Shown here one piece after another: positions 1,171-12,246 of a stretch of 64,000 nt of DNA; position 1 is the first letter of the stretch, and the number at the start of each line of letters is the position of its first letter. The stretch lies in contig DTSZ01000001.1 in NCBI GenBank assembly GCA_012965045.1, forward strand, positions 439,763 through 503,762. The letters run 5' to 3'. Under the pieces are notes generated by a model. It had not been told where the DNA came from, searched no databases, and saw only the letters and a program-made list of their open reading frames with translations. The DNA is from Candidatus Saccharimonadota bacterium (lineage in GTDB: Bacteria > Patescibacteriota > Saccharimonadia > Saccharimonadales > DTSZ01). The position numbers and the translations under genes are program-made.

Positions 1171-1193
1171 CCACCCCCCTATGCTTTTGGCCT

Positions 1194-1209
1194 GACTTTT
1201 CGAAAAGTC
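1194..1209 (+). terminator. 16-bp perfect palindrome GACTTTTCGAAAAGTC, 24 nt after the MFS stop; weak terminator or protein-binding site
   Basis: Read directly from the sequence. AU-rich stem with no following T-run, so terminator function is doubtful. Confidence 0.25.
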
Positions 1210-1268
1210 CGTAAACGCACCCATCAGCTAAAAACACGTCTACTTCAATTTTTGGTTTGATTTGGAAT

Positions 1269-1366
1269 ATACCCAACAAAAACGGGATTTTCTAAAACAG
1301 GGGTAGCGTTAAAAATTTACACCCAACAAATCTAATAGCTTAACAGAGGAAAAATTGTTGGGTAGA
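1269..1366. repeat. Three copies of YACCCAACAA upstream of the island operon: two direct, one inverted
   Basis: ACCCAACAAA occurs at 1271-1280 and 1321-1330, exactly 50 bp apart. The inverted copy TTGTTGGGT lies at 1355-1363. All three sit 60-150 bp upstream of the ATG at 1424. Confidence 0.5.
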
Positions 1367-1423
1367 AACTGTTAGTTATTTGCTAGTTTATATAGTCTCA
1401 ACACATCGGTATAATAAAGTTAG

Positions 1424-3970
1424 ATGAGACGCAAGTTAATTAGTAAGAGCTACCTTTTCTCCCGCCTAGGCACTTCTAGGTATTTTTGGCGTGCTCGGCA
1501 TAAAATTGCAAAAATTAACTTTAGACGGTTACGGACTAGTCTTGTGCTCAAAAATACCACCGCTACTGCAAAGACAGAAGTTCAGTATTGGCAAGCGATG
1601 TCCAAAGGCTCTACTGCTCCAATAGTGTTGGCGGTCGTGGTCGCACTTGCTTTGTATGCTCTTGAGCGAAATATCGCCGTCATAGCAGACCTAGGTTTGA
1701 TACAAAACACCTTTATTGGCAGGTACTTAAGTCGAGGCCTCGATCAAAACACATATGTGCAATTGCTAACTGCTATCGCAAGCGTAACGGGCGTATTCTT
1801 GGGTTTATACTTTACTGCCGTCAGTACCGTGATCTCTAACACATACTCTTCTGTTTCAGGGAATGTAAGAGAGCTTCTTCTCAAGGATAAGATTGGGAAT
1901 AATTACGTTAAGTTGGTGTCATTCTTGACTGCGCTATCAGTCATTCTTTTGTCGGTTAGTGTAGCTGGAGTTGCACCCCTTCATATAGCGGTTCCGCTAT
2001 TGGCAGTCGTTTCGTGTTTAGCCATTTTTGCTTTTGTTAATCTCGGTAAGCGTGCTTTTTTCTTATCTGACCCAACTCTTTTCTTCAACACGTTGTCGAG
2101 CGAACTACTTAAGTGGGTAAGGCAGGCAACTCATCGCGGTCATCACTGGAGAAATTCTAATTTTCAAGAGCATTATCGTAGACAGGCTCTAAAATCTGTT
2201 ACGACTGTGGCGACGCTCGCCGAAATATCTAGCGAAAAGCCTGAGTTGCAAGGTCAGGCACATCCAGAACTGTTAAGAAAAATGCTATTACTTGTAAATG
2301 TCTACCAAGAAGAAAAGCTTTCTATACCCTCTACGAGTAACTGGTTCAGCAAAAAGGCTCAACATAAGCAATGGTATCTGACAGAAAGTACTGAACTCGA
2401 GAGTGCTACGCAGACATACACGTCCCTAAAACCAAACGAAATGCCAGACACCACTTGGCTAGAGGACGCTATGCTAGATGTCATATTCAAGGCAAATAAG
2501 GCAGATTTAGAGCAAGGTAACTATCAAGCTCTTTATAATAAAATACTAAGTTTGGATGATTTTTTTAAGGAAACTAGCAATAAATGGCTTAGCGAGAGCG
2601 GTATCGAATGGCAGACAAAGCTTTCTAAAGATATAGTCAGTCAGTTGGCTAGCGATGCTGAGATTGATGAGCAACAGGAGCAGTACTCTCTTGCTGTTGC
2701 CGACATAGTAGCAAGCCTACCAATGTCTTTGGAGCTTGGGTTTGCGAAAGCTGTGGGTGAACTTAACGCGGATAAACTACGCACAGATCTACTCAATACG
2801 AACTGGCTTAAAAACAGCTCACCTTATGGCTTTAAATTACCACCAAACACAATTAAGACACTAGAGAAGATGCACGAGGGATTTGTATTTGAGAAGCTAG
2901 CTAATGCTTCACACAGAACCCAGAATTGGTACGTTACCGAATTAATACTCCACGACCTTGATATGGCACTCTATGGCCAATGGCAGGCACTTATATCGAT
3001 GCTCGAGACTTGGTACAAAGACGCTGGGGTAGCTTTAAGCAAAGCTAAGAAATATAAGCACTCTGCAATTATATACAGTAGAGCTATTGAACAAGCCTGG
3101 AAACTCGATAGTCACATCGAAACATTAAAGGAGCTTTCAAAGAAACTGGGCGAAGATAGCAAAATTAACTTTGAAAAAAACGCTGAATGGAATTGGGAAA
3201 AAGAGCACGACAGGGTTACCAAGTTCAGGGATATGGCTATAGAGGGTCAATCAAAACTCATACCCAAATTGTGGAACACAGAGAAACCAGACCCTGAAAT
3301 GCCTGATTTATTTGGGGGTGCAGTTCACTTCACAGGAGAAGCTTGTTACCGTTCGCTGGAGGCAGGCGATGCTGAGAAGTTCAAGGCACTGTTCCGAACC
3401 TACTTCTTTGGGATAATAGGTATATTTGATAGCGTGAGACCTCAAGTTCTCGACTGGGAGCAGGCGTCGGCAATATCTTGGATGTCTGAGCCAATTCTAG
3501 ATTTATTTGATATTAGTGGCTATGCATATGTATTTGCGGAATACCACGATATGCCCGAGATATGGAACGAATGTAAAACTGTATGGGACACATACATAGA
3601 GGAACTTCCTGCTCAACTACCTATATATGCAACTATCTCCAAATATCATCAAACCCCAAGAATGATGATTACGCCTCGTGCAACGCTCCGAAGTAGGTGG
3701 CAGATTGCTTTAGGAAAGCTACTCAGCGACCTGCATAAGCAGACAAATTCTTCTGGCTACTACTCTCAACCACGAGTTGAACATTCTAGTGAACTGATAA
3801 GAAATATAGCCCCCTTGAGCGACAGTGTACCCTCTATGTTCGTGGATGCTATAGATATATTTACCGTAAAGTATCTTATTACATTACAAGCTAGTAACGA
3901 ATTAGATTTCGGTATGATCGAAGATAAGATATCAAACATTAACGGTAGTGAAGAGGTGGATAATGAGTAG
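1424..3970 (+). CDS. Hypothetical multi-pass membrane protein with a large helical C-terminal region (848 aa)
   Basis: Long ORF. Basic N-terminus, then about four hydrophobic helices (APIVLAVVVALALYAL, LLTAIASVTGVFLGLYFTAVSTVI, LVSFLTALSVILLSVSVAGV, LLAVVSCLAIFAFV), then about 630 aa of W/E/K-rich soluble sequence. Alternative start at Met59 (nt 1598). Confidence 0.75.
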   Translation: MRRKLISKSYLFSRLGTSRYFWRARHKIAKINFRRLRTSLVLKNTTATAKTEVQYWQAMSKGSTAPIVLAVVVALALYALERNIAVIADLGLIQNTFIGRYLSRGLDQNTYVQLLTAIASVTGVFLGLYFTAVSTVISNTYSSVSGNVRELLLKDKIGNNYVKLVSFLTALSVILLSVSVAGVAPLHIAVPLLAVVSCLAIFAFVNLGKRAFFLSDPTLFFNTLSSELLKWVRQATHRGHHWRNSNFQEHYRRQALKSVTTVATLAEISSEKPELQGQAHPELLRKMLLLVNVYQEEKLSIPSTSNWFSKKAQHKQWYLTESTELESATQTYTSLKPNEMPDTTWLEDAMLDVIFKANKADLEQGNYQALYNKILSLDDFFKETSNKWLSESGIEWQTKLSKDIVSQLASDAEIDEQQEQYSLAVADIVASLPMSLELGFAKAVGELNADKLRTDLLNTNWLKNSSPYGFKLPPNTIKTLEKMHEGFVFEKLANASHRTQNWYVTELILHDLDMALYGQWQALISMLETWYKDAGVALSKAKKYKHSAIIYSRAIEQAWKLDSHIETLKELSKKLGEDSKINFEKNAEWNWEKEHDRVTKFRDMAIEGQSKLIPKLWNTEKPDPEMPDLFGGAVHFTGEACYRSLEAGDAEKFKALFRTYFFGIIGIFDSVRPQVLDWEQASAISWMSEPILDLFDISGYAYVFAEYHDMPEIWNECKTVWDTYIEELPAQLPIYATISKYHQTPRMMITPRATLRSRWQIALGKLLSDLHKQTNSSGYYSQPRVEHSSELIRNIAPLSDSVPSMFVDAIDIFTVKYLITLQASNELDFGMIEDKISNINGSEEVDNE

Positions 3971-4880
3971 ACTATCTCGACGATATTTTCCAAGAAAGAG
4001 ACGCCCAAAGGATGAGCCAGCACATTATGCATTTATGTTCATACGAGATATACATACGGGGATAATGCCCTTTCGAACTGGTAGGGAGTACCCCTTTACA
4101 GTTAAATTAAAGCGAGTAAACGAAAGCTTAGAGGTACAATTAAAGGACTTTTTAAGTATCGGTAAAGGTACAGGCTGGTCGATAACAGAAGAGTTAAGCA
4201 ATATAGTTGGAACACTTTCTCATTACTTAGTGGCTCTTGGTGAAATCTATATAGAAATTGTGCAAGATGATGAAGGCGACAAGAAGAGCTTGGCAGGGAA
4301 ACAACTCGTCATCTTGCCCAGAGGTAGGGTTTTAAGAGTATATAAGTATTACATTCAAGTTGTGCCTATTGAAAGCTGGAAGCGTGGTGAGAAAAAGTTT
4401 CATCTTATACCTTCTAAGAACATTTGGCACCTCAAGTTGCCTAAAAAGCTAGGCTCTCCAAGCAGACACCGTAGAACCCTAAAGAAACTTAATCTACTAT
4501 CCAATACGACGCCGGCATTTGTATTTGAAGACGGAAAACTAGGAGGGTCGGTATATTATGATTTCGCTAAGCATCGTTTCAATAGCGAAGTAGCTGTTGA
4601 GAACGTTACTTCAGAATGGGGCAGTATATGGAGCTTGGGGCAGATTAAGGGCACTACAGAGTACTACTATATCGTTAACAGGCTCAGGTCGTGTCGTTCG
4701 CAAGCCCTACTTCGCGAACATATTATTTCTGAAATCAATAGACTGATTTCAAGAATTGGCGTCAAGAACTCTATTCAGGTTAAAGGCTTAGCAATTTCTT
4801 CAGATATAAGCGAAGCTATATCTAAACTCGAGAAGGGTGAAATTGGCTTTCAAGAGGCAATGAAAGCTACTAAGAGCTAA
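3963..4880 (+). CDS. Hypothetical protein (305 aa), translationally coupled to the 848-aa gene
   Basis: ATG at 3963 is preceded by AAGAGGTGGA (SD about 7 nt upstream) and overlaps the upstream stop (ATGAGTAG). The tracked GTG at 3948 has less support. Confidence 0.7.
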   Translation: MSRLSRRYFPRKRRPKDEPAHYAFMFIRDIHTGIMPFRTGREYPFTVKLKRVNESLEVQLKDFLSIGKGTGWSITEELSNIVGTLSHYLVALGEIYIEIVQDDEGDKKSLAGKQLVILPRGRVLRVYKYYIQVVPIESWKRGEKKFHLIPSKNIWHLKLPKKLGSPSRHRRTLKKLNLLSNTTPAFVFEDGKLGGSVYYDFAKHRFNSEVAVENVTSEWGSIWSLGQIKGTTEYYYIVNRLRSCRSQALLREHIISEINRLISRIGVKNSIQVKGLAISSDISEAISKLEKGEIGFQEAMKATKS

Positions 4881-4888
4881 AATATCGT

Positions 4889-5380
4889 ATGAGTACTCAC
4901 AAAATATCCAAAAAAGGGCTAGAAAGGCTGAAAGAGGAGTTTCCAGAAGGCTTTGACCCAGAAAGGAGTTACGGCATTATTCCAAAGCAACCGAGACCAG
5001 AAGACACAGTTTATTGGCTCGATTACGATCCAGACAAACGCTATTTGAAGCTCAATAGTTTTGTAATACAGTCCTTTCAAATGGGTAGCAATGCCGACAC
5101 TTACTTCACTAAGCTGTTTGCCAAAAAAGGCTGGATTAAGAAAGTTACTGTAAAAAAGCCTGCTAGGGCTGGTGTACTAGTAAACAATATCAAGATGCCC
5201 CTTAAGCTACGTAATGCTATCTTCGATTTCGGAGCCAAAGGAACAATACTTGAAGTCCATACTGTTATTAGACGTGAGCGAGCTAGAAACTTCAGTGTCA
5301 TAGACAAAGAAGTGCAGGATTATTTGGTCAAATGCCGAGATAAGCACTACTCCCTGGTAGACGCTGGAAAACGAAAATAA
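4889..5380 (+). CDS. Hypothetical basic protein (163 aa)
   Basis: ORF starts 8 nt after the upstream stop, on the same strand and in the same apparent operon. No recognisable motif. Confidence 0.6.
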   Translation: MSTHKISKKGLERLKEEFPEGFDPERSYGIIPKQPRPEDTVYWLDYDPDKRYLKLNSFVIQSFQMGSNADTYFTKLFAKKGWIKKVTVKKPARAGVLVNNIKMPLKLRNAIFDFGAKGTILEVHTVIRRERARNFSVIDKEVQDYLVKCRDKHYSLVDAGKRK

Positions 5381-5429
5381 ACTACACAGGATTTGCGACG
5401 ATGGCTAGTTTTCTTGAGAGGATCGGCGT

Positions 5430-5579
5430 ATGGAAACGCCATCAACGCAAAAGAAAGATAAGCAATCGGACACTCTGATTGAGTTTGTCGAGTTGTTGGC
5501 TAAAATTGAAACTACTCCCGAGAAAATAAAGAAAAATAGCGATAAGATGACCGTGGGTACGCAAGTTATCACTTACTGA
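5430..5579 (+). CDS. Candidate small ORF (49 aa), not in the ORF track, upstream of the recombinase
   Basis: ATG at 5430 is preceded by GAGAGGA with 6-nt spacing. Translates to METPSTQKKDKQSDTLIEFVELLAKIETTPEKIKKNSDKMTVGTQVITY. TGA stop at 5577-5579. Confidence 0.3.
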   Translation: METPSTQKKDKQSDTLIEFVELLAKIETTPEKIKKNSDKMTVGTQVITY

Positions 5580-5609
5580 CCATCTACAACTACGCTAAAA
5601 TGGTGTTAT

Positions 5610-7193
5610 ATGGCGAGCTTATTAGGAGATACAGACTTTACTAAATTTAGGTATGTTTTGTATGCTCGCAAGTCTACTGAAGATGAGGGCAGTCAAATGC
5701 GTTCAATCAAAGATCAGATTAAAGTATGTAAAGAGTACGCTGAACGTAATAATCTAAACGTAGTCGCCATCATTAAAGAAGACAAGTCGGCGAAAGTAGC
5801 AAACAAGCGGTCAGGCTTTAACGAGGTTGTAAGCGAGCTAGAGACTAAGGACGGTAAATATGACGCCATACTCTCCTACGCACCAGATAGACTGGCTCGC
5901 AATATGCTCGAAGGTGGACTGCTAATAAACCTGGTAGATGATGAAAAAATAAAAGACCTCAAGTTTCCAACACACCACTTCACAAACGACCCATCGGGGA
6001 AGCTAACGCTAGGAATTATGTTCTCTATCTCTAAGCACTTCTCTGACGCCCTCTCAAGAGGCGTTAAGCGAGGTAATCAAGGCAACCTAGAAGAAGGTAT
6101 CTCTGCTGGTGTAGCTAGGTGGGGTTACGACAGAGACGCCAACGGGCACGATAGACCCAACGAGATGTTCGATCTGATCAAAGAGGGCTGGGAAATGCGA
6201 GCTAGCGGAGAGACGATTGCTAGCGTAGTCAAATTCTGGAAGAGAAATAACGTTCATAGAATGACGAAAATAAACCGCAAGAACAAAGTATCTAAAAGAA
6301 AAGAAATGACTTACAGTACCGCAACGAAGCTGTTTAAGAGCCCTTTTTACTACGGAATACTGGTGCAGTCAGAGCAAGAAGTAGACTTACGGCTCTTACC
6401 TATCAACTTTGAGCCAATGATAAGTGAGGAGTTATACAATCAAGTTCAATCGCTAAGTGAAAACAGATCAAAACTTAAACCAAAGACCAGTAAAAAAGGT
6501 ATATTTTACCCTTTCAGAAATATGGTTTTTTGTGGTGTTTGTAGGGGCGATATACCGATGCGACCTGGCAAAAATAAAAGCTCAAGCGGTAGTTACGGCT
6601 TAACCTATCGTTGCGACAATAAGCCTTGCGATAGAAAAGTAAAATCTGTTAGAGCTAAGTACATTCTAGATGACTTATATAAGGTACTCGATACACTGAA
6701 ATTCACTGAAAAAGAATACAACCAGTACAGTAAGCGTATGGAGGAATTTACTGCTGAAAAGATTGTTGAACTACGAACTGAAAAGCGAAGTCTAACTGGT
6801 AGAAAATCAAACCTCGAAAGTAGTTTCAAAACTAAGTCTCGGCAACTAGCAGAGCTTGGCAAAAGTTCGCCAGCTTTCACAACCTTAGAGACAGACTTAG
6901 AAGTGATGCAAGATGAACTGCTTGACCTAGAAGATGAAATAGCAAAGATTGAAGCAAAGCTAGTAAATCCGACCAAAATCAAGATGACCAAAGATAAGTT
7001 TTTGAACCTAGCAAATACTGCTTCTGACAAGATGAGAGCGGGCACTCCGCTAGAAAAAGACGTACTGGCACGAATAATGCTTTTGAACTTCACTATAGAC
7101 GACGAAAGGGCGCCTTCCTACCTCTGGAAAGAGCCCTTTGATAGCTTATTAAAAGCTAAGAATATTCGTTCTGGTGCGCGAGAGAGGACTTGA
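5610..7193 (+). CDS. Large serine recombinase (resolvase/invertase N-domain, recombinase domain, Zn-ribbon, coiled coil)
   Basis: N-terminal YARKSTEDEG catalytic-serine context, DRLARN motif, Cys cluster CGVCRG...YRCDNKPCD, and a long charged coiled-coil tail. The 527-aa size is typical of large serine integrases. Confidence 0.9.
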   Translation: MASLLGDTDFTKFRYVLYARKSTEDEGSQMRSIKDQIKVCKEYAERNNLNVVAIIKEDKSAKVANKRSGFNEVVSELETKDGKYDAILSYAPDRLARNMLEGGLLINLVDDEKIKDLKFPTHHFTNDPSGKLTLGIMFSISKHFSDALSRGVKRGNQGNLEEGISAGVARWGYDRDANGHDRPNEMFDLIKEGWEMRASGETIASVVKFWKRNNVHRMTKINRKNKVSKRKEMTYSTATKLFKSPFYYGILVQSEQEVDLRLLPINFEPMISEELYNQVQSLSENRSKLKPKTSKKGIFYPFRNMVFCGVCRGDIPMRPGKNKSSSGSYGLTYRCDNKPCDRKVKSVRAKYILDDLYKVLDTLKFTEKEYNQYSKRMEEFTAEKIVELRTEKRSLTGRKSNLESSFKTKSRQLAELGKSSPAFTTLETDLEVMQDELLDLEDEIAKIEAKLVNPTKIKMTKDKFLNLANTASDKMRAGTPLEKDVLARIMLLNFTIDDERAPSYLWKEPFDSLLKAKNIRSGARERT

Positions 7194-7258
7194 ACCTCCA
7201 CGGGATTACTCCCACTACCCCCTCAAGGTAGCGCGTCTACCAATTCCGCCACTCGCGC
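7172..7258 (-). tRNA. tRNA-Leu (anticodon GAG), class II with long variable arm and encoded CCA
   Basis: The reverse complement folds as acceptor GCGCGAG/CTCGCGC, anticodon stem CTACC/GGTAG with loop TTGAGGG, variable arm TGGGAGTAATCCCGT, T-arm GGAGG-TTCAAGT-CCTCT, discriminator A and CCA. Confidence 0.9.
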
Positions 7259-7401: not shown

Positions 7402-8712
7402 TTACAACTGCTCTTCTATTTCTTCTACATGAGTGATGGCATCGTCACCCATAAGACGGCGGAGCGTGTTTTTAAGCATGGTGTGCTGAATAAACAGGTC
7501 GTGTTCAGACGGGGAGCCGTCACTTGTTTGTGGGCCCTTGAAATAAAAGCTCAGCCAATCTTGTACTCCACCTAACCCAGCTCGGGCAGCAAGGTCTGTA
7601 AACAAAACAAGATCAAGGACAATTGGTGCAGCCAAAATTGAGTCTCTGCACAAAAAGTTGACTTTAATCTGCATTGGATACCCCATCCATCCAAAGATAT
7701 CGATATTATCCCAGCCTTCTTTTTCGTCGCCGCGTGGTGGGTAATAGTTAATTCGAACTTTGTGGTAATAGTCTTTATACAGTTCTGGGTATACATCTGG
7801 CTGTAGCACGGTGTCGAGCACCCCAGCTTTGGTAACCTCTTTGGACTTAAAGTTTTCTGGGCTGTCTAAAACTTCACCATCGCGGTTGCCTAAAATGTTA
7901 GTCGAAAACCAACCATTCAAGCCCAGCATGCGAGCCTTTAGCCCTGGTGCAATAATCGTTTTTATTAAAGTTTGACCTGTTTTAAAGTCGCGACCAGCAA
8001 TTGGAATATTACTACTTTGTGCAAGATTCGAAAGTGCTGGTACATTTACAGTGTTATGTGGAGCGCCGTTAATATATGGCACGCCTTCTTTTAAAGCAGC
8101 GTAAGCGTACAGCTGAGATGGTGACAAATCGTCGGAATCGTCAGCTATCGCCTTCTCGAACTGCTCAATGTCCTCGTGCACTAAACTTGGCTCGCTGTGA
8201 GCCTCGGTTGAGCCACACCATATCATCACTAAACGCTCACAGTTATTTTCAGTTTTAAACGATTTAATTTCTTGCCGTAATTCTGCGACTTTGTCAGCCA
8301 GCGACCCAGTTTTTATATTTGGGCCTTCAATGTTTTTTATAAATTTGCTTGAAAACACCGCTTTCATAGGCTTTATTGCAGAAAGATCATCTTTAACTTG
8401 CTCTAAATGGTGCGGGCTTAATACGCCGGCGTTAACAGCTGCTTCGTACATGTTTTCTTCGAAAATATCCCAACCACCAAAAACAAGGTCTTCCATATTT
8501 GCCAATGGTACATAGTCTTTTATTTTTGGAAACGACCGGTCATTGCCAGACCCTACCCGTATGGTTTGCATTTGTGACACCGAACCAAATGGTTGAGCTT
8601 GGTCTTTTCGCGCTGCGAAAACCCCAGCCATAAATGTTGTTGCCACCGCTCCCATGCCTGGCATTAAAATACCCAATTTACCTTGTGCAGGCTTAATATC
8701 TTTAGATTGCAT
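7402..8712 (-). CDS. Inositol-3-phosphate synthase (MIPS family)
   Basis: N-terminal GILMPGMGAVATTFMAG dinucleotide-binding region and the NILGNRDG motif typical of the family. SD GGAGGGAG before the ATG. Confidence 0.8.
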   Translation of the reverse strand: MQSKDIKPAQGKLGILMPGMGAVATTFMAGVFAARKDQAQPFGSVSQMQTIRVGSGNDRSFPKIKDYVPLANMEDLVFGGWDIFEENMYEAAVNAGVLSPHHLEQVKDDLSAIKPMKAVFSSKFIKNIEGPNIKTGSLADKVAELRQEIKSFKTENNCERLVMIWCGSTEAHSEPSLVHEDIEQFEKAIADDSDDLSPSQLYAYAALKEGVPYINGAPHNTVNVPALSNLAQSSNIPIAGRDFKTGQTLIKTIIAPGLKARMLGLNGWFSTNILGNRDGEVLDSPENFKSKEVTKAGVLDTVLQPDVYPELYKDYYHKVRINYYPPRGDEKEGWDNIDIFGWMGYPMQIKVNFLCRDSILAAPIVLDLVLFTDLAARAGLGGVQDWLSFYFKGPQTSDGSPSEHDLFIQHTMLKNTLRRLMGDDAITHVEEIEEQL

Positions 8713-8778
8713 GAATCTCCCTCCAGGCAGTTTGCTGCCTTCTCGTATTTAAGCTGATTTATGTCTAATTATAGCAGC

Positions 8779-10410
8779 TTAGCGATGCGAGCGTGGCAGG
8801 TGGTCTGAAAGGTGTTCCATAGAATATTCTTTACGCAAAATTGGTACGAGATCTTTTTTACTAACACCAATTTTTACACCTGGGTTAAGAATTCCGTAGG
8901 GGTCAAAAATCTTTTTTACTTTTGCAAATACATCATACATTTTTTCACCGTAAAGCTCTTTCAGGTACGGTGCACGCAAACGACCGTCGTTGTGCTCTCC
9001 AGCGGTGGATCCGCCCATACTCATTACTAATCCGTAATAATCGTCCATTAACCTAAATACTTTTTGTCGATCAGCGGTTTTGGTTAAGTCTAGGAATGGC
9101 TGCATGTGAATATTGCTATTTCCGGCATGACCCCATAGTGCAACGTCAAGGCCGTATTTTTCGTACAAGGCATAGACTTTTGGAATAAATTCGGTCAGTT
9201 TTTCTTGCGGCACAACACCGTCTTCTATAATTGGCAGAGCTTTTGCGTTTCCTTTGGTGTGCCACATCACAGCAGCAGCTGACCGCCGTAGTTTCCAAAG
9301 CATTTCTTGCTCATGCGGGTCTTCGGTAACCTGAAACTCAAGAGCGATTCCCTCAAGTATTTTTTTAGCTTTCTTAGTTAGCCGTTTGCGCTTACTTTCA
9401 TTGTTGTCGTCAAATTCAATTAATAAAACAATCTTCGGGAATGGCTTCTCGACCAAACCTTCAAGTTGCTTAGAGTTATGCTCATCAACAAGTTCTAGCA
9501 GGAATTTATCTACAAACTCTAACGCAGCTGGGCCTAATGGCAGCAATTGGGCAACAGCTTGCCCAGCAGATTCCAGACTGTCGAAATGTGCCGCAATCAA
9601 CGTATTCTGCGCGGTATAAGCTTCGGTGCGAAGTGTAATCTCGGTCACCACACCAAGCGTACCTTGAGATCCAACAATAAGCGGAGTTAAATCAAACGAG
9701 CCATCTTTGCGTTTGACATCTGTTAAGTCGTAGCCCGTAGAATTTTTACTAACATTTCGTTTGCTGTCGTGAATCAATTCCCAGTTATCCATGATCAGCG
9801 AGTCAAGCTGACGATATATTTCTGACTCAAAGCTGGTACCACCCATTTTTTTATTAAGTTCACGTTTTGTGATTCGTCGTGTGTCGATTACCTCACCATT
9901 GGCAAGTACCACCTGGCACGTTTTCACAAAGTTTTTAGTAGCACCATATTTTAGGGTCATTTCACCAGCGGCATTGTTAGCAACGGCGCCGCCAATAGTT
10001 GAAAATTCGATACTTGACGGATATGGCGGCATAAACCGACCGTGGCTTTTAAGTACTTTCTGCATGGCTGCATAGTTTTCGCCTGGCTGTACAATAATAG
10101 ATTCGCGGTCGAGTTGAATAATTTTGTTCATGTGGGCAGGAAAGACCATCATTATGCCGTCGCCTAGCGCTCCACCAGCCTGGTCAGTACCACGACCACG
10201 GGCAGTTATGGGTAGCACTTTGCCTTTTTCGGCCAGCTGCCAACTAAAACGAACAGTCTTGCGTACATCTGTTGTATTGAGTGGATAGACCACCATTTTT
10301 GGCGTAACTTCAAACACAGAACCATCTGTCGAAAAGTAGTCTCTAACTTTTTTAGAAACTATTACGTCTCCGCTAATGTGTTGTTGCAAATATTCAGCTA
10401 GCTTGCTCAT
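8779..10410 (-). CDS. FAD-linked oxidase (GlcD / D-lactate dehydrogenase-like)
   Basis: FAD_binding_4-like N-terminal region (VVYPLNTTDVRKTVRF...ITARGRGTDQAGGA) and a C-terminal FAD-oxidase domain (GGSTAGEHNDGRLR). Confidence 0.75.
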   Translation of the reverse strand: MSKLAEYLQQHISGDVIVSKKVRDYFSTDGSVFEVTPKMVVYPLNTTDVRKTVRFSWQLAEKGKVLPITARGRGTDQAGGALGDGIMMVFPAHMNKIIQLDRESIIVQPGENYAAMQKVLKSHGRFMPPYPSSIEFSTIGGAVANNAAGEMTLKYGATKNFVKTCQVVLANGEVIDTRRITKRELNKKMGGTSFESEIYRQLDSLIMDNWELIHDSKRNVSKNSTGYDLTDVKRKDGSFDLTPLIVGSQGTLGVVTEITLRTEAYTAQNTLIAAHFDSLESAGQAVAQLLPLGPAALEFVDKFLLELVDEHNSKQLEGLVEKPFPKIVLLIEFDDNNESKRKRLTKKAKKILEGIALEFQVTEDPHEQEMLWKLRRSAAAVMWHTKGNAKALPIIEDGVVPQEKLTEFIPKVYALYEKYGLDVALWGHAGNSNIHMQPFLDLTKTADRQKVFRLMDDYYGLVMSMGGSTAGEHNDGRLRAPYLKELYGEKMYDVFAKVKKIFDPYGILNPGVKIGVSKKDLVPILRKEYSMEHLSDHLPRSHR

Positions 10411-10494
10411 GTCGCAGACAGGCTCCTTGTTGTTTTTTTACGCTTATGTTTCTTCTTAGACCATGGTACCAAAAAGCTGGTATTTTATACAGCG

Positions 10495-12246
10495 TTATTC
10501 GACTTGGCTGATTGATTCTGTCCGAACATACCACTCGTGAATATTAGTAAAGCGGTCAGCAGTCCGCGATAAAACGTCCCAACTATAGCCTTTTATCCGA
10601 TCAGTTTGCTGATAGTCATAGAGTGATTGGTGCAGGGCTACAGCTGGGCTTAGATCTCGCCACTGTTCAAGAAATGCTTCGTATTTAGCAATACGTAAGT
10701 TTCTGTCTGTTCGAGTTCGGCCAGCTTCTAATGCCGAATCGATAATAGAATTTTCTAATCGCGAAAAGTTTAAACCGCCTAAACCTGCCTGTGAACTGTG
10801 CCAGAACACAAAGTTGTCTAGATCGAGACCATTTTGAATTGTAGCTAATACAACTTGGTAATTTTTAGACGCTACACTTCTGCTTTGGAAATCAGCCACG
10901 CTTACAAACTCCGCATATACATCGATTCCTTCAGGCTGCCAGCTCTTTTGCAAGCCTTCAACTATCAGCCGATTTTCGAGTGTATCGGCAGCTAAAATTG
11001 TTAACGATAACACCTGCCCGTCTTTTATACGAAGCCCTTCGTCAGAACGGACAAAACCAGCAGCATCAAGTTGCTGACGGCCTTTTTCAGCATTATGAGG
11101 TAGCTGCACATGACTAGGATTATCAACCGCTAACTGTTGCGGTAAGAACGGATTGTTAATTAACGGCGCCTGAAACGTTTGAGCGGTGTATATTTGCGAT
11201 TTATCAACAAGCTGCGTTAGTGCTTGCCGCACAGCTTTAGTTTTTAAAATGTCGTTTTTAGTGTTAAAAAACAAATACGATCCAGCTGCCAGCTTGGTTG
11301 GCGTTGCGGCGGTGTCAGTTGCGGTGCTCGAAATATTGTCTTGTTTACCGAAGCCATCAACTAAGCCTTTGTCGAACGCGTTTTGGGCAGTTGCCGAATC
11401 TTCAAATAACTCGATCTCAATAGTTCTAATGTAGGGTTCTCCGCGATAATAATTTTCATTTCTGGTTAATGTGATAAGCCCAGAGTCGCCGTCGATTTTT
11501 GCCACCTCGTAAGCACCGGTACCAACAGGATTAATAGAAAACTCACTGGACCGAATACTTGCCGGATCAACCGCATGTAACTTGTGCTCAGGCAGAATTA
11601 ACTGCCTCAGAAGGTGCGGGAATGGAGCGAATGAATTAGGCAGCTTAAAAATGACGCTATTTGGGTCTGGCGTTTCGACAATAACACCCTCCCAGGTGTC
11701 GGAAAAAATCGACCCCACCTGTTTATTTTGCAGCAGATCAACGGTAAAGCGAACGTCTGACGAGTCAAACTGCTCACCGTCATGCCACACCACATCGTCG
11801 CGTAACTGTAATGTAAATTCATCGGCAGCTTCGTTGGCAATAATTTTAGTAGCTAGCGATGGGCTTAAATTACCGGCTGCGTCGTAGACCAAAAGACTAT
11901 CAAACACAATACCGGCAATATCGGCATTTGCTCCGTCCAGCGCGAATAACGGATTAAGGTTGTTTACCTTGCCGACAACTGCCTCACGGTAAACACCTCC
12001 TTGGGTCGGTATTTGTTTTAACGACGTCTGCCGAGACTGACTAATTTGGACAAGACTTGCTGCTATTAGCGCCGTGCAGAGCACTAACCAACCAGTTGCA
12101 AATCGCCGGATTTTTCTGAACTTTTTCCACCGCTTAACAACTGTTTTATCAATATTTTCAAGCGAATCAACCCATGACTTAGCCGGAAGCTTTTTTAGTC
12201 TTCGTATAAATCGCTTTGTCTTAAATTTGATATATGGTCTAAACAT
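10495..12246 (-). CDS. Membrane-anchored family-5 (peptide/nickel type) ABC substrate-binding protein; no permease genes adjacent
   Basis: Basic N-terminus plus a TM anchor (WLVLCTALIAASLV), then an SBP_bac_5-like body (GGVYREAVVGKVNNLNPL..., WHDGEQFDSSDVRFT). Confidence 0.7.
   Translation of the reverse strand: MFRPYIKFKTKRFIRRLKKLPAKSWVDSLENIDKTVVKRWKKFRKIRRFATGWLVLCTALIAASLVQISQSRQTSLKQIPTQGGVYREAVVGKVNNLNPLFALDGANADIAGIVFDSLLVYDAAGNLSPSLATKIIANEAADEFTLQLRDDVVWHDGEQFDSSDVRFTVDLLQNKQVGSIFSDTWEGVIVETPDPNSVIFKLPNSFAPFPHLLRQLILPEHKLHAVDPASIRSSEFSINPVGTGAYEVAKIDGDSGLITLTRNENYYRGEPYIRTIEIELFEDSATAQNAFDKGLVDGFGKQDNISSTATDTAATPTKLAAGSYLFFNTKNDILKTKAVRQALTQLVDKSQIYTAQTFQAPLINNPFLPQQLAVDNPSHVQLPHNAEKGRQQLDAAGFVRSDEGLRIKDGQVLSLTILAADTLENRLIVEGLQKSWQPEGIDVYAEFVSVADFQSRSVASKNYQVVLATIQNGLDLDNFVFWHSSQAGLGGLNFSRLENSIIDSALEAGRTRTDRNLRIAKYEAFLEQWRDLSPAVALHQSLYDYQQTDRIKGYSWDVLSRTADRFTNIHEWYVRTESISQVE

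Follow-up and report, generated by a model that had tools for sequence, protein, structure and literature searches.

The 64,000-nt stretch of contig DTSZ01000001.1 analysed here (positions 439,763 to 503,762; hereafter the window) comes from a member of Candidatus Saccharibacteria (TM7) from hydrothermal-vent metagenomes (JGI 3300001678 'Mariner'; NCBI TPA EYO12_02340). Within it, the gene for a large serine recombinase (LSR) runs into a convergent transfer RNA (tRNA) gene, tRNA-Leu(GAG), and this junction very probably forms the right end of an integrative island of about 8.0 kb that is moved by the recombinase, is seated at the extreme 3' end of the tRNA gene and carries its own attachment site, attP, inside the recombinase open reading frame (ORF). 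An earlier note on this DNA had proposed a mobile LSR island at the 3' end of tRNA-Leu(GAG) with the recombinase/tRNA overlap as its right boundary, and the comparisons described below support that proposal. The argument turns on three features of the window:

5610-7193, plus strand: large serine recombinase, integrated short form, 527 residues (Pfam; phrog_95).
7142-7196, no strand assigned: attR, consisting of a P arm (7142-7171; recombinase codons), the core TGGTGC (7172-7177) and a B' arm (7178-7196) (junction table; dyad and motif analysis).
7172-7258, minus strand: tRNA-Leu(GAG), the host target gene, whose 3'-terminal GCACCA (6 nt) forms the crossover core (ARAGORN; Rfam; paired acceptor stem).

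The tRNA gene, the sole tRNA of the window according to ARAGORN, is intact with a completely paired acceptor stem, and its CCA is genome-encoded at 7172-7174, since the Rfam tRNA match spans 7175-7258. The overlap with the recombinase ORF is exactly 22 nt (7172-7193). The tRNA is whole after insertion; the ORF crosses attR, where the tRNA complement supplies its last six sense codons and then its stop, a TGA (7191-7193) within the complement of the T-loop TTCAA. The B' arm of attR is formed by the acceptor and T-arm of the tRNA, with CTTGAAC at 7189-7195. The ARAGORN call and the ORF coordinates confirm the earlier observation that the 527-residue ORF ends at 7193, 22 nt inside the tRNA gene, and the ORF strands bear out the change of polarity reported at the same place: every ORF of 1424-7193 is read from the plus strand, whereas the three genes that follow on the right (7402-12246) are encoded on the minus strand. 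Base composition does not set the island apart (GC 0.38-0.44 on either side).

Sister elements were examined at the loci L086, L088/089/090, L091-094, L185-192 and L193-198, together with uninterrupted forms of the recombinase gene at L095 and L096. Each integrated sister has a recombinase ORF whose 3' end overlaps a convergent tRNA-Leu by exactly 22 nt; the anticodons are TAA, CAG, TAG, CAG and TAG. The overlap in the window is not a product of chance, because six independent sister elements have the identical overlap with a convergent tRNA-Leu. Together with the GAG gene of the window, four tRNA-Leu isoacceptors are used across the elements, which range in size from 5.6 to 10.4 kb.

The left end of the window element was located on L003, a contig that covers the island to the left of the window and on which position 4392 corresponds to window position 1. 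The attL core lies at L003 3550-3555, equivalent to window position -841, and the distance between the two cores is 8,013 bp. From left to right the island comprises a displaced recombinase tail, a 170-residue ORF, a major facilitator superfamily (MFS) gene, genes for proteins of 848 and 310 residues, genes for proteins of 163 and 49 residues and the recombinase. Since attL sits 841 bp to the left of the window, the MFS gene and the 170-residue ORF count as cargo. A terminator-like hairpin (acagcccttcgggct) lies to the left of attL, as it does in L086 and L091; this is the sequence expected downstream of a tRNA gene, and the original tRNA terminator now flanks attL.

The core TGGTGC (the complement of GCACCA, the tRNA ending in ...GC-A-CCA) is common to attL, attR and attP in the junction table, and sequence comparison confines the crossover to these 6 bp. 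In the window element, attL reads TGGTGC followed by codons of the recombinase tail, with no displaced fragment of the tRNA body. At attR, the 16 nt past the core pair with the 5' acceptor strand of that same tRNA in every element compared, and the C-terminal residues of the recombinase vary accordingly from element to element (GARERT, GAKSGT, GADERT, GTRERT); attP-type junctions have tail-coding sequence in place of these 16 nt. The 16 nt thus complement one side of an acceptor stem whose 5' strand lies in the same tRNA, and they belong to the host tRNA and not to the element. Two parts of the earlier interpretation consequently had to be changed. The 22 nt had been taken for a tRNA copy brought by the element, of which only the 6-bp TGGTGC is shared by attL, attR and attP; and the left end had been sought in 1171-1423, a stretch without an att-like site. 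The statement that the window holds no long direct repeat stands, although a short, 6-bp direct repeat does exist; a far more informative mark of the island end is the displaced 3' end of the recombinase gene, which lies to the left of the window. A second att junction within 1171-1423 was also considered and was rejected, the stretch offering just a weak resemblance, AAACGC, without core, tail or recombinase remnant.

The same arrangement can be read from L088 and L089, where the left junction has the form (unrelated flank)-TGGTGC-ACCAAACGC..., with the peptide in the recombinase reading frame, and the right junction the form (recombinase 3' end)-TGGTGC-GGATGAG..., the latter part being tRNA. 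The pattern TGGT[GA]C-N16-[CT]TTGAAC, used to recognize attL, occurs at one site per element, on the recombinase strand. For the window element, the predicted attP, as a circle or tandem junction, is AAGAATATTCGTTC-TGGTGC-AACAAACGCACAAACGTTTGAAC, and the predicted empty attB is GGGCTATCTTTAGTT-TGGTGC-GCGAGAGAGGACTTGAACC.

Some 160 nt to the left of attL, at L003 3367-3393 (approximately window -1025 to -999), lies the sequence TTAGTT-TGGCGTGCGAGAGAGGACTTGG, a 28-nt copy, with three mismatches, of the empty attB predicted from the flank and the 3' 22 nt of tRNA-Leu(GAG); the copy is off the junction, and more tRNA-like fragments (CACCTCCACGGAGGTTCAAGAC) are found between this copy and attL. An Rfam scan of the region to the left of attL gave no match. 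The copy may represent a pseudo-attB or a scar left by some earlier event.

Joining the 3' end of the recombinase gene to the left end of the island through the core gives an ORF of 569 residues that ends ...SGA-TNAQTFELINRIAEWLYKNPDESIFKLPKLTLSEKQNQRLQQVYAY, the last residues being QQVYAY. Identical joining in three sister elements gives ORFs of 566-567 residues, and uninterrupted recombinase-TGGTGC-tail ORFs occur naturally in public DNA: P0059 (575 residues, L095), P0067 (584 residues, L096) and L088 1-1037, the upstream recombinase of the L088 tandem array. All three end in ...YAY or ...YAF. Every element examined has a homologous 48-codon tail at its left end; six of six tails consist of exactly 48 codons plus a stop and align without gaps. 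Differences between the tails fall mostly on third codon positions (397, compared with 309 at first and 216 at second positions), 136 codon differences are synonymous, and the other two frames contain 14 and 25 stops, which indicates that the tail is under coding constraint. In the integrated state of the window element an in-frame TAG stands ahead of the tail, which lacks a start codon and is therefore translatable only when rejoined to a recombinase gene. With ORFs of 569 and 527 residues, natural long forms and a tail at every attL, the sequences place attP within the integrase ORF, and integration exchanges a conserved C-terminal tail of 48 residues for six tRNA-complement codons (569 to 527 residues). 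In an AlphaFold2 (AF2) model of P0059 the tail contains a helix (531-547) with a predicted local distance difference test (pLDDT) score of about 62-66, the remainder scoring below 50; at this low confidence no structural role can be claimed for it.

The attP sequences show dyad symmetry that is maximal when centred on the GC of TGGTGC in six of six sites (8-11 matches of 20); other centres mostly gave 1-7 matches of 20, with one position in L091 reaching 10. The right arm of attP carries [C/T]TTGAAC, within the Phe-Glu-Leu codons of the tail, at +17 to +23 in six of six sites, and the right arm of attB, formed by the tRNA acceptor and T-arm, carries CTTGAAC at +12 to +18 in all attB sites. The right-arm motif is therefore 5 bp nearer to the centre in attB than in attP. 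An equal inward shift of 5 bp in attB is known for the zinc-ribbon-domain motif of LI integrase (PMC3783163), and an offset of this size is typical of such motifs in LSRs.

The recombinase itself has the sequence characteristics of a large serine integrase. Pfam Resolvase (PF00239) matches residues 16-159 with an E value of 3.8e-19, covering the catalytic domain, and Pfam Recombinase (PF07508) matches with an E value of 7e-07 (29.9 bits against a cutoff of 21.1). Among 30 homologues, Ser22, Arg94 and Arg97 are invariant, as are Cys308, Cys311, Cys335 and Cys340 of the zinc ribbon. The AF2 model of the homologue P0059 shows β-strands at 310-352 and long helices at 371-483 and predicts the usual LSR domains, including a Recombinase domain and a zinc ribbon with an inserted coiled coil. 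The protein matches PHROG 95, annotated 'integrase', with an E value of 3e-61; its best NCBIfam matches are far below cutoff (XisF, 72 against 375 bits; CcrB, 52 against 900 bits), and sequence matches in the PDB involve the catalytic domain only. More than 500 homologues were found with 48-72% identity, nearly all of about 525 residues and many labelled Saccharibacteria or Patescibacteria.

Comparison of sister loci provides the best view of mobility. The L088 and L089 elements are 99.97% identical over 7,613 bp starting exactly at the core, whereas the backbone genes that the two loci have in common reach only about 78% identity and the left flanks show no relationship, with an abrupt break at TGGTGC. 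Likewise, the L185 and L188 elements are 98.5% identical and the genes flanking them 66-90%; the L185-type element, from human oral metagenomes, is found next to three unrelated left flanks, each with its boundary exactly at the core. Elements also accumulate in tandem arrays at one and the same tRNA: L088 contains three units, and 3' remnants of recombinase genes lie to the left of attL in L089 and L189. A trio of tRNA-Leu(TAG), a flavin adenine dinucleotide (FAD)-oxidase gene and tRNA-Leu(CAG) is conserved between L091 and L185, with the island at the TAG gene in the former and at the CAG gene in the latter; in both, the other tRNA-Leu of the trio has no recombinase-bearing element at its 3' end, so that the tRNA-Leu(CAG) between the FAD-oxidase and SpoU genes is unoccupied in L091 and occupied in L185. 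By this analogy, the trio would be the nearest approach to an empty-site comparison. The pair of tRNA-Leu genes is a conserved double hotspot, in which either gene serves as the landing site depending on the genome. The two genes that bracket the FAD-oxidase are divergent, with their 3' ends facing outwards (L091 11557-13583; L185 11575-13575).

A cluster of SBP_bac_5, SecG, holin and M24 genes lies to the right of the tRNA in L088 and to the left of the island, in the opposite orientation, in L089 (P0008 recombinase). The switch points to an inversion, or to insertion at another locus, and recombination between tRNA-Leu or att sites in inverted orientation could have brought it about.

Taken together, these data lead us to propose the following cycle. 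The circular form would express the full-length enzyme of 569 residues, which would bind attP, with [C/T]TTGAAC in its right arm, and attB, with CTTGAAC in its tRNA arm; a staggered cut of 2 bp inside TGGTGC would then allow the two sites to recombine. On excision the complete gene would be restored, probably with the help of an accessory factor, for which the 163- and 49-residue genes are candidates, as accessory or directionality factors.

Several observations weigh against this proposal. The predicted attB 27-mer of the window element was absent from JGI metagenome contigs in an exact search, the predicted attP 27-mer was absent from IMG/VR viral contigs and the reconstructed 569-residue protein from a collection of 15 billion proteins. 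All eight contigs that carry the neighbouring myo-inositol-1-phosphate synthase (MIPS) gene seem to carry the island as well. The natural long ORFs, in all members of the family that have them, may represent tandem-array junctions and not free circles. The left arms of attP and attB have no common motif and do not share TTGAAC. A crossover centred on GC is unexpected for a directional LSR, this dinucleotide being palindromic; L091 has TGGTAC at attR and TGGTGC at attL, a difference that speaks for strand exchange in TGGT (ACCA in complement), and the sequences leave the position ambiguous between the GC at the symmetry centre and TGGT. Finally, PADLOC detected no defence genes in the cargo of the window island. 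A break between the Logan contigs L002 and L003 inside the tRNA (approximately 7230-7242; SRR1217452) was considered as a sign of population heterogeneity and rejected, since the overlap is just 13 nt and falls in a conserved stretch of the tRNA; it is probably a repeat-induced assembly break and offers no evidence of an empty site.

The alternative that best survives these data, and which we regard as possible though unlikely, is that the island is a fixed relic in which the loss of the tail on integration has crippled the recombinase (compare Mx8 IntP and SSV1 Int), leaving it incapable of self-excision. Only the integrated form of the window element has been seen, older units of arrays lose their recombinase, the tail is carried by just two of the 120 closest recombinase homologues, and the best 150 of 415 cluster representatives (E ≤ 1e-30) match the long form only as far as the core. 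Against this, the 527-residue ORF is intact and retains all of the invariant catalytic and zinc-ribbon residues, and the detached tail is intact as well, with 48 codons that are still coding; both findings speak for a rejoining that is recent or keeps recurring.

Phages are the classic source of serine integrases, and the match to PHROG 95 would also suit a degraded prophage or a phage satellite. This origin is improbable: the island gives no further PHROG match and holds no virion, packaging or lysis genes, close relatives of the recombinase are absent from the viral contigs of IMG/VR, and the small elements of the family carry only defence genes or cargo of unknown function. An island of the classic tRNA type, with its left end in 1171-1423 and a 22-nt copy of the tRNA 3' end supplied by the element, would account for the overlap, which is real, and would match the behaviour of tRNA-gene (tDNA) islands with tyrosine integrases (PMC4383910), yet it is very improbable, for it implies GCGAGAGAGGACTTGA after the core in the excised circle, whereas attP-type junctions have unrelated tail-coding sequence there, in six elements the 16 nt past the core match the 5' acceptor strand of the respective tRNA, and attL, well to the left of the proposed stretch, has no tRNA-body fragment. 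That the recombinase is a resident backbone gene, a non-mobile invertase, resolvase or developmental excisase of the XisF/SpoIVCA type that merely abuts the tRNA, can draw on XisF as the best (albeit far sub-cutoff) NCBIfam match, the uniform base composition and the lack of an empty site found for this genome, but is hardly credible in view of near-identical elements beside unrelated flanks, variable cargo behind a constant module, the use of four tRNA-Leu isoacceptors and tandem units with decayed recombinase remnants.

The remaining features of the integrative island, together with copies of its largest gene pair elsewhere, are:

1-1170 in the window (whole gene L003 4359-5561), plus strand: MFS transporter, 400 residues, of which the 3' 1170 nt are in the window and which begins 32 nt to its left (Pfam MFS_1, E value 4e-15); cargo, not backbone.
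1171-1423, no strand assigned: internal spacer, not the left end of the island, without recombinase-3' remnant, tail or P-type att motif.
1424-3970, plus strand: 848-residue cargo protein with N-terminal membrane helices and a large all-α domain, first gene of the cassette.
3948-4880, plus strand: 310-residue cargo protein, partner of the 848-residue gene, with which its reading frame overlaps.
4889-5380, plus strand: 163-residue protein of the conserved recombination module.
5430-5579, plus strand: 49-residue ORF of the conserved module, directly upstream of the recombinase (called in L003-L005).
L180 10001-13451, L182 10001-13454, L184 10001-13683 and window 1424-4880: copies of the 848/310-residue cassette.

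The module upstream of the recombinase is the constant part of these elements. Relatives of the 163-residue protein (36-53% identity) are encoded directly ahead of the recombinase gene in L086, L088 and L091, and ORFs of 47-50 residues homologous to the 49-residue ORF occur in L088, L091 and L096. The window element, L088 and L091 have the complete module, with genes of about 160 and 49 residues, ahead of the recombinase; L086 has the gene of about 160 residues only. None of the 24 homologues of the 163-residue protein is annotated.

Behind this module the cargo varies among elements. That of the sisters includes Gabija (GajA, with E values of 7e-161 and 3e-195, together with GajB), a cyclase of the cyclic-oligonucleotide-based antiphage signalling system (CBASS) with an effector containing two transmembrane segments, and a defence-type (DRT-type) reverse transcriptase next to a MutH/methylase pair. 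As defence systems are found only in the cargo of sisters, the label of defence island fits the family and not yet its member in the window. The 848-, 310- and 163-residue proteins have no match in Pfam, PADLOC, NCBIfam or PHROG. An AF2 model of the 848-residue protein (pLDDT 84) gave no real fold match in the PDB, only generic α-solenoid noise. The protein has 64 homologues of about 845 residues, and a gene of 306-334 residues follows each of those examined; the cassette recurs with other serine recombinases at tRNA-Pro and tRNA-Gln, besides tRNA-Leu here, and the copy in L182 adjoins GmrSD and an EcoRI-type methylase. The cassette is a candidate for a new defence system and, by analogy with the sisters, the cargo of the window island (170-residue ORF, MFS gene and cassette) may be defensive. 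The 170-residue ORF (L003 3782-4294; window -609 to -97) gave a sub-threshold match to Peptidase_C39 (E value 9e-4; 19.5 bits against a cutoff of 22); with the adjoining MFS transporter it may form a small export or processing pair.

On the other side of the tRNA lies the MIPS gene (7402-8712, minus strand), the closest relatives of which in the genome collection are only 65% identical and belong to Gemmatimonadota. Sister Saccharibacteria loci have no MIPS gene between the tRNA and the FAD-oxidase or SBP genes, and the gene may have been acquired horizontally. A search of the genome collection with the MIPS protein, aimed at syntenic relatives, yielded no relative of the host genome.

The habit of reading into a convergent tRNA extends well beyond the sister elements. 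When metagenomes were scanned with a recombinase alignment, more distant LSRs (28-39% identity) were found on the JGI metagenome contigs L097-L176; among the matches listed, at least 45 of the 68 with a complete 3' end have an ORF that enters a convergent tRNA, and the tRNAs have at least 13 identities (Val, Pro, Phe, Gly, Ser, Asp, Asn, Gln, Glu, Tyr, Trp, Arg and Leu). Some of these ORFs read at least 57 nt into the tRNA where the T-loop gives no in-frame stop. As a tentative extension of the proposed integrative cycle, which we consider more doubtful than probable, the C-terminal exchange could act as a state switch, the tailed form (circle or tandem junction) being competent for integration and the tail-less form silenced, or biased towards excision with the 163- or 49-residue partner, while the habit of running into a convergent tRNA would mark a very large LSR clade with at least 13 tRNA identities and provide ready attP/attB pairs for the engineering of Candidate Phyla Radiation (CPR) bacteria. 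If so, directionality would be set in part by the end of its own gene to which the enzyme is joined.

Saccharibacteria have tiny genomes and few known mobile elements. The islands are a vehicle for the exchange of defence systems among them, human oral lineages included, and the predicted attP/attB pairs could serve as integration tools for these hard-to-engineer bacteria. An attP within its own ORF would let an LSR alter its own C-terminus at each integration, which bears on the control of LSR directionality. Serine integrases that target tRNA genes are barely documented: their use of tRNA genes was 'not known' in 2015 (PMC4383910), and in 2020 it accounted for 14 of 297 computational cases, 'requiring experimental proof' (PMC7192596). 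In the literature on Saccharibacteria and Patescibacteria, no account of this recombinase family was found. What is new here is a whole LSR clade that appears systematically at tRNA genes, with att sites predicted at base level.

Among known systems, the recombinase resembles the LSRs of phages and integrative and conjugative elements (A118/LI, phiC31, Bxb1, TP901-1, SPbeta SprA) in its Resolvase and Recombinase domains, four-cysteine zinc ribbon and long coiled-coil insert, and its predicted sites resemble theirs in the pseudo-palindromic attP, the very short attP/attB identity and, in the right arms, the 5-bp shift of the attB motif (PMC3783163); it differs from them in its target, the 3' terminus of a tRNA gene, in its CPR host and in belonging to a small non-phage island. 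XisF (fdxN element) and CcrB (SCCmec) likewise have the LSR architecture and move a discrete chromosomal element, with targets and biology that differ from those described here. Islander tDNA islands and tRNA-linked defence islands share with the present family an intact tRNA at one end, an adjacent integrase, tandem accretion and, in the sisters, defence cargo; the window island departs from the Islander definition on two counts, having no displaced tRNA fragment at the far end and an integrase of the serine rather than the tyrosine family. The closest parallel in design is to Mx8 IntP and SSV1 Int, enzymes that likewise have attP inside their own ORF, use a tRNA gene as target and are altered or split in their C-terminal region on integration (PMC4383910). 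Those enzymes are tyrosine recombinases that use long blocks of tDNA identity, whereas a serine recombinase with a 6-bp core is at work here, and the piece displaced here, unlike theirs, is a tail of 48 residues beyond the conserved catalytic and DNA-binding domains. Details of Mx8 IntP were reportedly given by Tojo et al. in 1996. The resemblance is one of the mode of working, not of ancestry.

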